From: Gammaproteobacteria bacterium
Lineage (GTDB): Bacteria; Pseudomonadota; Gammaproteobacteria; Eutrophobiales; Eutrophobiaceae
Direction: 5' to 3'
Assembly: GCA_046757565.1 (NCBI GenBank)
Contig: JBHHYN010000004.1
Location: 4,086 to 68,085, forward strand
DNA length: 64,000 nucleotides
The position numbers were made by a program, and so were the translations under genes. Shown here piece by piece: positions 38,991 to 52,662 of the stretch. The notes under the pieces are model-generated. The model ran no database searches. It saw nothing but the letters and a program-made list of their open reading frames with translations, and was not told where the DNA came from. Within the stretch, counting starts at the first letter, position 1; every line of letters begins with the position of its first letter.

Positions 38991-40334
38991 ATGCTCGAGA
39001 AGGTTGTTATTGCAAACCGTGGCGAGGTAGCGTTACGCATCCTGCGGGCATGTCACGAACTCAGGATCAAGACCGTAGCCGTCTTTTCCGAGGCAGACCG
39101 GGATCAGAAACATGTCCTTCTTGCCGATGAGTCTGTTTGTATCGGTCCGGCCGCATCCATAGACAGCTACCTCAATATCCCGGCCGTCATCAGCGCTGCG
39201 GAGGTAACCGATGCAGTGGCCATTCATCCGGGTTATGGTTTTCTCGCCGAGAATGCGGATTTTGCCGAACGGGTTGAACAGAGCGGATTTATTTTTATCG
39301 GTCCACGTGTTGATACCCTTCGCCTGATGGGCAACAAAATTACCGCCATCGATACCATGAAAAAATCAGGCGTGCCGTGCCTGCCCAGTTCCGGTGACCT
39401 GCGGGAAGAAGATCTGGATGAAACAACCAGGATTGCCAAGAAGATTGGCTATCCCGTTATTATCAAGGCTGCCGGCGGTGGCGGCGGCCGCGGTATGCGT
39501 GTTGTCTTCAGTGAAGCCACCCTGCGCAATGCCATTACACTTACGCGCAGCGAGGCAGCGGCGGCCTTTGGCGACGATACGATCTACATGGAAAAATTTC
39601 TTGAACACCCGAGGCATATTGAGATACAGGTATTGGCAGACGGACATGGCAATGTTGTTTATCTCGGGGAACGTGACTGCTCCATGCAGCGGCGCCACCA
39701 GAAGGTAATTGAAGAAGCCCCCGCTCCCGGAATAGACGAAAGAACACGCAGCAGAATCGGAGAGAGTTGCCTGGAGGCCTGCCGCTCCATGCATTACCGG
39801 AGTGCCGGAACCATCGAATTTTTATATGAGGAGGGACAATTCTACTTTATCGAGATGAATACCCGCCTGCAGGTTGAACATCCCGTCACAGAGATGGTAA
39901 CCGGGATTGATATTGTGCGTGAGCAACTTCGTATTGCCGCAGGAGAAAAGCTTGGCTATTCACAAAGAGATATCCATATTAACGGTCATGCCATTGAATG
40001 CCGGATTAATGCGGAAGACGCAGAAACCTTTATGCCCTCGCCGGGTGTCATCGAACATTACCACCCACCGGGCGGCCCGGGTATACGTGTTGATACCCAT
40101 GTTTACCAGGGGTATCGGATCCCGCCGCACTACGATTCGATGATTGGAAAATTAATTGCCCATGCCGAGACCCGGGAACTGGCCCTGGCAAGAATGTCGA
40201 TAGCCCTCTCTGAAATAATCATTGAAGGAATTAACACCAACATAGCCCTGCATGAAAAGCTCATCGACGATGCCGCGTTTGTCGCCGGTGGAACAGATAT
40301 ACACTATCTGGAAAACAAACTTGGGCTGAAATGA
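38991..40334 (+). CDS. accC: acetyl-CoA carboxylase biotin carboxylase subunit
   Basis: 447 aa; ATP-grasp with GGGGRGMRV glycine loop. Confidence 0.95.
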
Positions 40335-40458: not shown

Positions 40459-41343
40459 ATGCCCTGGTTGCGGCTAAGGATCGATACCAATAAAGATAAA
40501 ATCGGGCTGGTGACGGGTCTGTTTGAACAGTTTGGCGCCGCTTCAATTAGCTATCGTCCCGCCAGCGGCGAGACCCTGTTTGCGGGATCGGCCGAAAACA
40601 GCATCTTTTGGCAACGCACCGCTGTCATTGCATTACTGGATCCCGAAATTGATATGGATATTCTGCTCGCGTGTCTACGCAACCGCATCGGGACCGCCAA
40701 TATCCTTGCCCACAAGATCGATGTACTGGAGGAGAGGGAATGGACTGAGGCGCATAAACAAGGTTACGGAACCATGTTGTTCGGCGGGCGTTTGTGCGTC
40801 TGTCCGGGTTGGCTGGATCCCCCGCCAGACTACCCCTGCTCAATTACCCTGGACCCGGGGCTCGCTTTCGGGACGGGGACACATGCAACCACGGCGCTCT
40901 GTCTCGACTGGCTCGCAGGACATGAACTGTATGACAAGACGGTTATCGACTACGGCTGCGGTTCAGGTATTCTGGCCCTGGCGGCTGCGCGACTTGGCGC
41001 CAGGCATGTATATGCCGTCGACACTGATCCCCAGGCCATTACGGCAGCCTCGGCCAATGCAGGACGGAATAATCTGGTTGAGAAAATAACCATCACTGCT
41101 CCACAGCAGTTAACACTGTCCGACGCGGATATTCTCGTCGCCAATATATTGCTGGATCCACTGCTGACACTCGCCCCTGAATTCAGCAGGCGGGTCCAGG
41201 CTGGAGGGGAAATTGCTCTATCGGGCATCCTGGCATCACAGGCACAAGAGTGTTTGTCGGTCTATGGCCGCTGGTTTACCATGCAAGAAACGGAGTTTCA
41301 CGACGAGTGGGCCTTGATAAAAGGCCATCGATCAACCGAGTGA
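40459..41343 (+). CDS. prmA: ribosomal protein L11 methyltransferase
   Basis: 294 aa; DYGCGSGILA SAM-binding motif; accBC-prmA synteny. Confidence 0.9.
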   Translation: MPWLRLRIDTNKDKIGLVTGLFEQFGAASISYRPASGETLFAGSAENSIFWQRTAVIALLDPEIDMDILLACLRNRIGTANILAHKIDVLEEREWTEAHKQGYGTMLFGGRLCVCPGWLDPPPDYPCSITLDPGLAFGTGTHATTALCLDWLAGHELYDKTVIDYGCGSGILALAAARLGARHVYAVDTDPQAITAASANAGRNNLVEKITITAPQQLTLSDADILVANILLDPLLTLAPEFSRRVQAGGEIALSGILASQAQECLSVYGRWFTMQETEFHDEWALIKGHRSTE

Positions 41344-41367: not shown

Positions 41368-42414
41368 ATGTTTACCGATTGTCCCGGTTGCAGCAGACAG
41401 TTTCATATCTATGCGATACAGTTAACGGCAGCCAAAGGGCTGGTAAAGTGTGGTTTTTGCGGACAGCAGTTTAATGCTATAGAGCGGTTGCACGACAAGC
41501 CGCTGCCGATTATCGATCAGCAGCATAACGGCAACCACTTGCGGGCGCAGCATGAACCACTGCCACATGAGGCGATGCAACCGCGGTTTCCTGTCCCGGA
41601 TTCAGCGGAAGGGCCTCTGGAAAACGGAACGCTTGATACACCTGGGGCAGAATCGGTCTCCTATGTCGGCGCTTTCCCGGTTGGTATACAACCACAATCA
41701 TACGAACCGCCGCAGCCGCAGTTTCCTCTCCCGGATTCAGCGGAAGAGACACCGGAAAACGGAGCGACTGAACCACCGGGAGCGGATCCTGTTTTCAATG
41801 CCGGCCCTCTTCCGGTTGATGCGGAACCGCAACAACAGAGGCCTGAAGAAGATAATGGGCAACTTGAACAGGTGCAACCACCACAGGAATATGCGTTTAA
41901 CGGGGATGATCGGGTTGATGTCCGGCCGTCAAGACCGGGAATGGTGTTGTCCTTGTTTTGGACTGCCGGCGTCCTGTTGTTAACGGTTGTCGCCATAACC
42001 CAGCTTGCCTGGTTTAACCGGGATCAATTATTGAGCCGGTATCCGGCGATGATGCCCTGGGTAATCAGGCTCTGTGACCGGATGCAATGCCAGGTATTTC
42101 GCCATCGGGACGTAGCCGCCATCAAATTGATTAACCGGGATGTCAGGGACCACCCACGGTATGAACATGCCTTGCTGGTCAATGCGACCATGAGCAGTCA
42201 GTCGGACACCTTTCAACCATACCCCGAAGTGCAACTGCTTTTGTACGATACAAACGGAAAAATGGTCGCTCATCGAAAATTCCATCCACAGGATTACCTG
42301 GATGACAGCGTTCAGATAACCGCAGGAATGGCGCCCAACAGGCTGGTACATTTTGTGTTGGAGGTTACCGGAATGACTGCAAGGGCGGTCAGTTTTGAAT
42401 TCAATTTCCTATAA
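41368..42414 (+). CDS. zinc-ribbon plus DUF3426 domain protein with a Pro-rich internally repeated linker
   Basis: N-terminal CPGCSRQF...CGFCGQQF zinc ribbon; a central TM segment; two copies of a motif of about 22 aa (PRFPVPDSAEGPLENG... / PQFPLPDSAEETPENG...). Same position (prmA-X-dusB) as in Pseudomonas. Confidence 0.7.
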   Translation: MFTDCPGCSRQFHIYAIQLTAAKGLVKCGFCGQQFNAIERLHDKPLPIIDQQHNGNHLRAQHEPLPHEAMQPRFPVPDSAEGPLENGTLDTPGAESVSYVGAFPVGIQPQSYEPPQPQFPLPDSAEETPENGATEPPGADPVFNAGPLPVDAEPQQQRPEEDNGQLEQVQPPQEYAFNGDDRVDVRPSRPGMVLSLFWTAGVLLLTVVAITQLAWFNRDQLLSRYPAMMPWVIRLCDRMQCQVFRHRDVAAIKLINRDVRDHPRYEHALLVNATMSSQSDTFQPYPEVQLLLYDTNGKMVAHRKFHPQDYLDDSVQITAGMAPNRLVHFVLEVTGMTARAVSFEFNFL

Positions 42415-42415
42415 A

Positions 42416-42442
42416 GGAAACTCTGATTAAGTCAGAGTTTCC
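42416..42442 (+). other. perfect 11-bp stem-loop directly after the DUF3426 gene stop (no U-tract)
   Basis: ggaaactctga-ttaag-tcagagtttcc. Confidence 0.4.
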
Positions 42443-42566
42443 AGCAGCATAGGGATGTGCTTATTCAGGGCGTCCTAAAATAAATAGCCAACAAACAGCA
42501 CTTCAGAATCTTTTACTCAGCGACCACATTAATCACTTTCTTCTTCTTGCAATCCCCGCTATTATC

Positions 42567-43040
42567 TTGTCCAACCGCCAGATAAAACAAGAAGCGCTAT
42601 ACAGAAGGATGAAAATAGGGCCCCGGTTATTTCAAAACAATCTGATCCTCGTCAATGGCGATGCCCGTTCGCCTCAGGACGCCGCCAGAGTATTGGCCTA
42701 TACATCCGCCGACGGGATCATGATTGGCATGGCCGCGCAGGGTAATCCGTGGCTATTTAGAGAGATTTCTCACTATCTTGCCACCGGGGAATTGCTTCAT
42801 GGACCGGAACCCGGAGAAATCAGGAGGGTGCTGCTATCGCAGCTTGAAAATCTTTATGCCTTTTATGGAAAGTTTACCGGCGTACGTATTGCCAGAAAGC
42901 ATATCCGCTGGTATGGTCGTCATCAGAAAAATATAAAACAGTTTCTCGCTCTGGTAAACCAGACAGAGTCAGTTATAAAACAGTTGGAAATGGTATCGCA
43001 ATTCTTCAGTCAAAACGGTATGCAAGAGATGGCGGCATGA
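42567..43040 (+). pseudogene. dusB: tRNA-dihydrouridine synthase B, 5'-truncated remnant (C-terminal helical domain only), translationally coupled to fis
   Basis: The 157 aa align only to the C-terminal third of DusB (from LVNGDARSPQDAARVLAYTSADGIMIGMAAQGNPWLFREI to the end). The upstream in-frame sequence hits a stop at 42450 and no catalytic TIM-barrel region exists in any frame between the DUF3426 gene and 42567. The 3' end overlaps the fis ATG (ATGA). Confidence 0.6.
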
Positions 43041-43318
43041 CGTCCGGCCGCAGCTCATCAAAAGAGAAGAGAAAGGCTGAAAGGCGCAAGGAGTATTTAT
43101 GTGACCATGTACACCGTTCTCTCAACAACTATTTCAAAGACCTCGATGGCCACAAGGCCAATGGCCTTTACAATCTGATGATTTCACAAGTCGAAAAACC
43201 TATGTTTGAACGGGTGATGAAAGAAACACACGGTAACATAACCAGGGCAGCTGAGCTGTTGGGCATCAATCGGGGAACGCTGCGCAACCGTTTGATAAAA
43301 TATGGCCTCGACAAATAA
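43037..43318 (+). CDS. fis: DNA-binding protein Fis
   Basis: 93 aa; C-terminal HTH ...[26 protein letters not shown] matches Fis (E. coli [26 protein letters not shown]). Confidence 0.9.
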   Translation: [93 protein letters not shown]

Positions 43319-43341
43319 CATCCCGGGGACAGACAGGTCCT

Positions 43342-43377
43342 AATATCGCCACGGCAGCTTGCTCAGTGGCGATATTA
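43342..43377 (+). other. 11-bp stem-loop after fis (terminator-like, weak U-tract)
   Basis: aatatcgccac-ggcagcttgctca-gtggcgatatt. Confidence 0.35.
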
Positions 43378-43493
43378 AAGAAGCTCTGATTAGTTCATCA
43401 CGGGATACATCATGTCCCGATACGGCAGGGACCTTATGATTAATCAGGGGCCCCTTAAACAGAGTCGAGGTTAATTAGCGGAAATAATCACCT

Positions 43494-52451: not shown

Positions 52452-52662
52452 TGCATATTGATGGGCATCAACCGTGGTGCCGTTACAGACTTTTAACCTG
52501 AACCATGGGTTCAAGTGGGAACAGCGGGCGACGTTTCAGGCTCCCCACCAAAGCGGGTCTGCACAACAACATCGCGGTTTAGTCCCCTGGCAAACAAAGA
52601 TAGGCTCAAGTTTATGCCAGCCTGACCACGAACACCACAGAAGATACCCGAACCTTATGCCG
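52452..52662 (-). ncRNA. ssrS: 6S RNA (SsrS) candidate
   Basis: 52493-52545 resembles the E. coli 6S 3'-bubble hairpin and 3' arm (CCUUGAACCAAGGGUUCAAGG...ACAGC...GCGGCGG). It lies immediately downstream of zapA on the same strand, as in the conserved zapA-ssrS arrangement. A long closing helix can only form on the minus strand because it needs G·U pairs: 5' GGGUAUC-UU-CUGUGGUGUU (52650-52631) pairs with 3' GGCACCACGG-UU-GAUGCCC (52481-52463). The ends are approximate. Confidence 0.55.

Follow-up and report, generated by a model that had tools for sequence, protein, structure and literature searches.

The 64,000-nucleotide stretch of DNA from an uncultured Gammaproteobacteria bacterium (assembly GCA_046757565.1, contig JBHHYN010000004.1, positions 4,086 to 68,085), called the window at its full length, was found to contain a dusB-fis operon in which dusB was reduced to a remnant of 143 codons. 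The genes were found in the order accC-prmA-(Zn-ribbon/DUF3426)-dusB remnant-fis-purH-purD, and the order from prmA to purD was the same as that given in the original prediction. The dusB-fis operon is well known, and the locus represents a natural variant of it that is specific to the lineage. The original prediction had described dusB as truncated at the 5′ end; the lesion is instead very probably an in-frame internal deletion of ~184 codons that abolished catalysis, and the ATG at 42609 with the first 14 codons was found to represent the authentic DusB N-terminus. The features of the dusB-fis unit were as follows (relatives are designated by L numbers).

42609-43040, + strand: dusB with an in-frame internal deletion, 143 codons and a stop codon (NCBI MFQ5659040.1, 'tRNA-dihydrouridine synthase')
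42609-42650, + strand: retained native DusB N-terminus, codons 1-14, MKIGPRLFQNNLIL (profile ranking, comparison with L021, HMMER)
42648-42656, + strand: deletion junction CTC GTC AAT (L14-V15-N16), from codon-level comparison with L021, L010 and L014
42654-42785, + strand: TIM-barrel leftover, beta-alpha-beta-alpha, residues 16-59, equivalent to E. coli residues 200-243
42810-43037, + strand: complete C-terminal four-helix domain, residues 68-143, from AlphaFold2 (AF2) helices and the match to the helical domain of 6EI9
43037-43040, + strand: ATGA, a four-nucleotide overlap of the dusB stop codon with the fis start codon
43037-43318, + strand: fis, intact, 93 amino acids (NF001659, 100.7 bits against a cutoff of 99; C-terminal Pfam HTH_8, 2.3e-14)

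Structure of the dusB remnant

The mechanical open reading frame (ORF) at 42567-43040 contained 157 codons with a TTG start, whereas the gene callers, including that of NCBI, started the remnant at ATG 42609, which gave 143 amino acids. The in-frame stop codon upstream of the remnant was found at 42450-42452 (TAG), and no TIM-barrel coding was found by tblastn in any frame of 42415-42566; both had been stated earlier. The Pfam PF01207 match of the ORF was limited to profile positions 186-304 of 311, and the TIGR00737 (DusB) match to positions 195-317 of 319 with 98.9 bits against a cutoff of 293.3, so that the equivalog cutoff was missed. The earlier statement that only the C-terminal part of DusB aligns was borne out by the two profiles, but it overlooked the native N-terminal 14 residues, which are also kept.

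The search with full-length DusB by tblastn was found to contain a weak second match, in which residues 2-16 were placed at 42609-42653 in the same frame and abutting the match that begins at residue 198. A profile was built from 15 independent DusB N-termini (the 14 residues preceding APMAG) and scored over all six frames of the window. The peptide MKIGPRLFQNNLIL at 42609 took rank 1 among 80,653 stop-free six-frame 14-mers, with a score of 26.2 against 16.9 for the runner-up (z = 6.4). Nine of its 14 residues were identical to the N-terminus of L021 (MKIGSHLLCNNLLL), the protein of which begins MKIGSHLLCNNLLLAPMAG. The DNA near the dusB ATG was also found to be similar between the window (GAAGGATGAAAATAGGG) and L022 (GCGGATGAAAATAGGAT), and HMMER aligned the N-terminus of the remnant to RIGQYQLRNRLI of E. 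coli DusB in 6EI9. The placement of the 14 residues by MAFFT was arbitrary and was dropped, and the profile ranking and the codon-level comparison were used instead. The first-ranked 14-mer and the match from residue 199 are in one frame and adjoin directly, and the lesion was therefore read as an internal in-frame deletion.

The dusB of L021, L010 and L014 was found to contain 327 amino acids against 143 in the window, which gave 184 missing codons (552 bp). The missing segment was equivalent to P16-I198 of E. coli (codons ~15/16-198/199). The junction in the window read CTG ATC CTC GTC AAT GGC GAT, whereas L021 contained CTT CTT GCC CCG at the 5′ side and GTG ATT GCC AAT at the 3′ side. The microhomology common to both deletion endpoints in the relatives was TTGCC (CTTGC in L014), and such shared microhomology is, at the level of the sequence, the signature of a deletion by slippage or illegitimate recombination.

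In E. coli DusB, the TIM barrel is formed by residues 1-243 and is followed by an 8-residue linker and the four-helix domain; flavin mononucleotide (FMN) is contacted by P16, M17, H169, N200-D202, G224 and R225, and the catalytic cysteine is strictly conserved in the Dus family (PMC5814906). The catalytic cysteine of E. coli DusB was taken as C100 in the NMGCPAKK motif. The remnant aligned with full-length DusB (TIGR00737; PDB 6EI9) over the N-terminal 14 residues and residues ~199-321, with an identity of 46-60% to gammaproteobacterial DusB and an E value of 3e-31 against 6EI9. Equivalents of E. coli residues 1-14 and 199-321 were thus retained, followed by a complete helical domain at the C-terminus. 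Unlike full-length DusB, the remnant had lost 184 residues of the (beta/alpha)8 barrel, including the catalytic cysteine and most of the FMN contacts, and no complete barrel was found in it.

The residues P16, M17, C100 and H169 of E. coli were all found within the deleted segment. The NGD residues and the glycine equivalent to G224 were kept, whereas the arginine that contacts the FMN phosphate (E. coli R225) was replaced by Met41. The MIGRAAQG motif therefore reads MIGMAAQG in the remnant, and arginine was found at this position in 122 of the 122 homologs. A second residue invariant in the 122 homologs was changed in the helical domain (H78Q), and 45 of the 50 highly conserved positions were kept. 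Dus catalysis by the 143-residue product is excluded, because C100, P16/M17 and H169 are deleted and R225 is changed to methionine; the loss of catalytic function had been correctly foreseen. The view of the remnant as the C-terminal helical domain held in that this domain is complete, but the barrel also kept its final two beta-alpha units (E. coli 199-243).

The AF2 model, computed from an alignment of homologs, contained beta-alpha-beta-alpha followed by four helices at residues 68-86, 88-103, 109-116 and 122-142 with a predicted local distance difference test (pLDDT) score above 90. The N-terminal tail was of low confidence, and the model describes the topology only and not the stability of the fragment.

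Overlap with fis and the flanking region

The remnant ended on the start codon of fis in the ATGA at 43037-43040, as described earlier. The GCnGCATGA sequence at the overlap was found to be invariant in seven loci (the window, L009, L013, L010, L014, L021 and L022). The purine-rich AAGAGA at 43024-43029, inside the remnant and 7 nt before the fis ATG, was considered as the putative ribosome-binding region of fis. The relatives were found to contain AAGAA, AAAGGA or AAGAGAG at this position, within a purine-rich stretch 8-15 nt before the fis ATG.

The locus resembles that of E. coli and Salmonella, in which dusB is located downstream of prmA and, in the same orientation, directly 5′ of fis. 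The fis ribosome-binding site is located inside dusB and a −10 of TAATAT is reported for the Salmonella operon (PMC7069363), and the one autoregulated promoter is located upstream of dusB (PMC7482072). The window would share the fis translation signals in the 3′ end of dusB and the operon promoter upstream of dusB. Unlike E. coli, with its 25 nt between dusB and fis, the window and its relatives contained the ATGA overlap, and the window dusB was without codons ~16-198.

As a separate observation, one protein of the representative library (P0175, 391 amino acids) was found to contain a DusB C-terminus that reads through into a complete Fis. The fusion could be real, or a frameshift or an error of assembly may have joined the two genes at a junction of the ATGA type.

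The features that flank the dusB-fis unit were as follows.

42416-42442, + strand: perfect 11-bp hairpin with a 5-nt loop (arms 42416-42426 and 42432-42442), 2 nt past the DUF3426 stop codon
42537-42565, + strand: promoter-like block TTTCTT-17 nt-TATTAT, invariant columns in the alignment of the window, L021, L022 and L017
42573-42598, + strand: leader blocks AACCGCC (42573-42579) and AAGAAGCGCT (42589-42598), from the alignment with L021, L022 and L017, preceding the dusB start
43341-43377, + strand: hairpin with 12-bp perfect arms 3′ of fis, 23 nt past the fis stop codon

The upstream conservation with L021, L022 and L017 was found to consist of short collinear blocks only, and a local DNA alignment of the intergenic region under strict scoring was not significant. 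The TTTCTT-17-TATTAT block is a putative operon promoter upstream of dusB. The GCG-TAATAT of E. coli was found at a place comparable to the TATTAT box of the window, and the two systems share a TA(A/T)TAT −10-like box with GC before it. If the promoter is right, the TTG at 42567 would lie upstream of the transcript start, which is predicted at about 42572, and the ATG at 42609 would be further favoured. A candidate internal promoter at 42889-42917 matched 9 of 12 positions, which was within chance expectation, and it was rejected. The leader blocks may form a 5-bp stem (ACCGC...GCGGT) with an A/U-rich loop in L017 and L022; only 4 bp were found in L021 (CCGC...GCGG), and the window contained one mismatch (GCGCT).

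The stem-loop at 42416-42442, already noted in the original prediction, was unique in the window, with a folding z of −4.9, and was absent from the relatives in the alignment. It was not of the intrinsic terminator type, as no U tract was found, CAGCAGCATAGGG follows the stem and the terminator scan was silent. The hairpin at 43341-43377 was also without a U tract (z of the region −2.9) and is a possible 3′ end of the operon. Since both hairpins are without a U tract, the terminators in this genome may not be of the canonical intrinsic form. A 25-nt direct repeat (80% identical), which may have arisen by chance, was found to flank the dusB-fis unit at 42410-42434 and 43373-43397; the first copy begins at the stop codon of DUF3426, the second just past the hairpin 3′ of fis. 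The Rfam search of the window gave no match within the dusB-fis locus.

Relatives, age of the deletion and neighbouring genes

The closest relatives were found to be distant, with an identity of 79% for the best PurH and 73% for the best Fis (78% over the conserved 72 residues). L021 was the nearest relative by PurH. A scan of genome contigs with the remnant gave nearest species representatives of only 45% identity and therefore no close relatives. All sampled relatives that cover the region, except for L017, were found to contain a full-length or near-full-length dusB with the ATGA overlap with fis. The dusB contained 327 amino acids in L021 and L010/L011 and also in L014-L016 when counted from the aligned start (called at 346-347 amino acids). 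In L022 it was called at 311 amino acids with the true start further upstream, and in L009 it contained at least 290 amino acids and was cut at the contig end. The comparison of relatives, which the original prediction had put forward for dating the deletion, points to a probably recent event.

The L017 contig (Logan SRR31012006), with an accC of 81% identity, was found to share the synteny, the upstream blocks and the GCATGA at the fis start. It differed from the window in the gap between DUF3426 and fis, which was only 320 bp, and in a broken frame of 73 codons. At L017 3681-4004, the dusB ATG (3783) and the TGA that overlaps fis were found in one frame, 73 codons apart, with two stop codons between them. 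A hidden Markov model (HMM) search of the gap detected no Dus coding. The similarity of the gap to DusB 218-261 was weak and inconsistent: tblastn without composition correction gave E = 0.019, and in shuffle tests the score was reached in 3 of 1000 against L010 and 35 of 1000 against L021 and was not significant against L022 or the window. The gap is possibly a decayed dusB. The dusB gene was lost at least two times near this lineage, with fis retained.

No other protein with the architecture of the remnant was found, as the searches gave full-length proteins, fragments at contig ends or genes split by frameshift. Three short Dus proteins on long contigs (P0074, P0043 and P0115) were tried as recurrent truncations and rejected, being frameshift-split full-length genes or noisy assembly and not deletions. 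The second HMMER stretch in P0171 was rejected as a match to the N-terminus, being an internal duplication of that protein. The dusB upstream of fis was split into adjacent Dus ORFs of 136 + 147 and 192 + 136 amino acids in a further two metagenome contigs of gammaproteobacteria (L018 2423-3444 and L020 2426-3411); these are frameshifts or sequencing errors, and the full-length DNA was retained.

A second assembly, Logan contig L001 (SRR29324611), was found to be 99.95% identical to the window over 16,238 bp, with the same architecture and junction; its reads are possibly shared with the NCBI metagenome-assembled genome. The two differed by 8 single-nucleotide polymorphisms (SNPs), two of which were located in the 432-bp remnant, and both were nonsynonymous (A30D, V122A; binomial p = 0.018). 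The mean identity to five outgroup DusB was 50.6% for the remnant against 53.8% for the intact L009 ortholog over the same columns. Judged by this small relative-rate excess, the deletion is probably young compared with the depth of the lineage, and it represents lineage-specific, probably recent gene decay. The changes A30D, V122A, R41M and H78Q point to relaxed constraint on the protein sequence of the remnant, which would be expected if it served as a leader only.

The neighbouring genes upstream were as follows.

38991-40334: accC
40459-41343: prmA
41368-42414, + strand: Zn-ribbon/DUF3426 gene, 348 amino acids (Pfam DUF3426 8.9e-37 and an MJ0042-type zinc ribbon), upstream of the operon

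The position of the Zn-ribbon/DUF3426 gene was found to be filled in L010, L014, L017 and L022. Within the gene, a stretch of 135 nt (45 codons) was found to be duplicated in tandem (41555-41689 and 41690-41824, 71% identical), a repeat that Tandem Repeats Finder did not report. The duplication was located in the Pro/Glu-rich linker and gave a protein of 348 amino acids against 233-290 in the relatives. The sole Rfam match in the window at the gathering threshold was 6S RNA (RF00013, 72.5 bits) at 52465-52646 on the − strand.

Possible role of the remnant

A putative role of the remnant as a translated leader for fis is given about an even chance (roughly 0.5). In such a role, one microhomology-mediated deletion of ~552 bp would have removed nearly the whole catalytic TIM barrel with the frame preserved, and would have spared the native dusB start, the upstream blocks, the open frame and the 4-nt ATGA overlap. 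The remnant would act, if at all, as the translated leader of the dusB-fis operon, and the promoter 5′ of dusB would still drive fis. Ribosomes on the short ORF would protect the transcript from the polarity of a premature stop and would terminate on the fis start codon, with the putative ribosome-binding region AAGAGA lying inside the remnant where they terminate. Selection would tolerate the loss of the enzyme and disfavour any lesion that disrupts the reading frame or the 3′ end. The leader role is favoured by the conservation of the ATGA overlap across the clade and by the Salmonella dusB nonsense allele described below. It is rather unlikely that the remnant is kept by selection with the leader (promoter, ribosome delivery to fis) as its sole role, and that L017 represents a more advanced stage, with fis already independent. 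Retention of the remnant for the sake of fis expression, as proposed earlier, is plausible with the operon layout intact but unproven, and L017 has fis without the ORF. A comparable arrangement was made in the laboratory in Yersinia, where both dusB and fis were given in-frame scar deletions, partly to avoid the polar effects of transposon insertions (PMC5045184). Unlike these, the deletion in the window is natural, was formed via microhomology and kept 129 C-terminal codons.

A number of findings weigh against a leader role. The E. coli precedent invoked earlier, in which fis was said to depend on translation of the upstream ORF, did not hold: besides the 25-nt gap, dusB of E. coli is translated ~100-fold less than fis (0.02 against 2.06), so that the delivery of ribosomes by coupling may be minor, and fis needs cis-acting RNA sequence and structure in the 3′ end of dusB and not dusB translation, a dependence on the promoter upstream of dusB being documented as well. 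In the seven loci, RNAalifold found 0 conserved pairs upstream of fis and no stem-loop of the E. coli type, in which the clade differs from E. coli. Scans for consensus promoters and terminators found nothing in 42415-42608, the promoter part of which counts here, and the dusB start was found in a poor Shine-Dalgarno context, with GAAGG directly abutting the ATG. This group can do without the upstream ORF, because L017 keeps fis without an open dusB frame. A deletion is in frame in one of three cases by chance without selection, and this one was seen in one species-level lineage only, in which the ORF is possibly too young to have decayed. Given a recent deletion and a small rate excess, the open frame of 143 codons is only weak evidence of selection.

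Several of these findings agree with a reading of the remnant as a young neutral pseudogene, in frame by chance and with an unselected ORF that decays as in L017, while fis uses the upstream promoter and its own ribosome-binding site. This reading is a distinct possibility. It agrees with the 1/3 chance of an in-frame event, the recent date implied by the small relative-rate excess, the presence of fis without an open dusB frame in L017 and the scarce translation of dusB in E. coli, as well as with the two nonsynonymous SNPs and the loss of two invariant residues in the remnant. However, the frame, start, stop and overlap of the remnant were all found to be intact. The ATG and TGA of L017 are also in one frame, and if L017 represents a second independent deletion, two in-frame events would have a probability of ~1/9. 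In Salmonella, the dusB nonsense allele Trp232stop was among the operon mutations that apparently disrupted fis expression (PMC7069363), which also speaks against a purely neutral remnant.

The completeness of the helical domain, its pLDDT above 90 and the 45 of 50 conserved positions would agree with a functional small protein of 143 amino acids, in which the four-helix domain acts alone, for example as a binder of tRNA or RNA; the helical domain is described as a major tRNA recognition module of Dus enzymes (PMC5814906). Such a function is improbable, as the pLDDT is driven by the alignment of full-length enzymes and is silent on the stability of a fragment with two orphan beta-alpha units, both population SNPs alter amino acids, the invariant H78 of the helical domain is changed and the searches yielded no other protein of this kind. 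An assembly or sequencing artefact, or a minority variant in a genome with full-length dusB, is highly improbable: both sequences are metagenome assemblies with possibly shared reads, but the junction is common to two assemblies that differ by 8 SNPs, is exactly in frame and is accompanied by lineage-specific substitutions at FMN-site residues. The ~5 nt of microhomology at the endpoints is too short for the collapse of a repeat by an assembler. A split gene, with the catalytic barrel encoded elsewhere and assembling with the fragment, is hardly to be expected at all, since tblastn with full-length DusB over the 64-kb window found no other Dus-like coding (best other match E = 0.03) and the fusion of the N-terminal 14 residues to residue 199 is the signature of a deletion and not of gene fission.

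The public name 'tRNA-dihydrouridine synthase' for MFQ5659040.1 is functionally wrong, as the catalytic core is gone. The organism is predicted to be without dihydrouridine at position 17 (D17) in tRNA unless another Dus is encoded elsewhere. If the remnant does not act as a leader for fis, the locus represents an ordinary lineage-specific gene inactivation. If it does, the locus would represent a natural separation of the coding role of dusB from its cis role for fis, in which translational coupling at the ATGA would constrain the path of decay of the upstream gene, and operon architecture, not protein function, would decide which parts of a dying gene survive. The locus may therefore exemplify gene decay that is shaped by the architecture of the operon.

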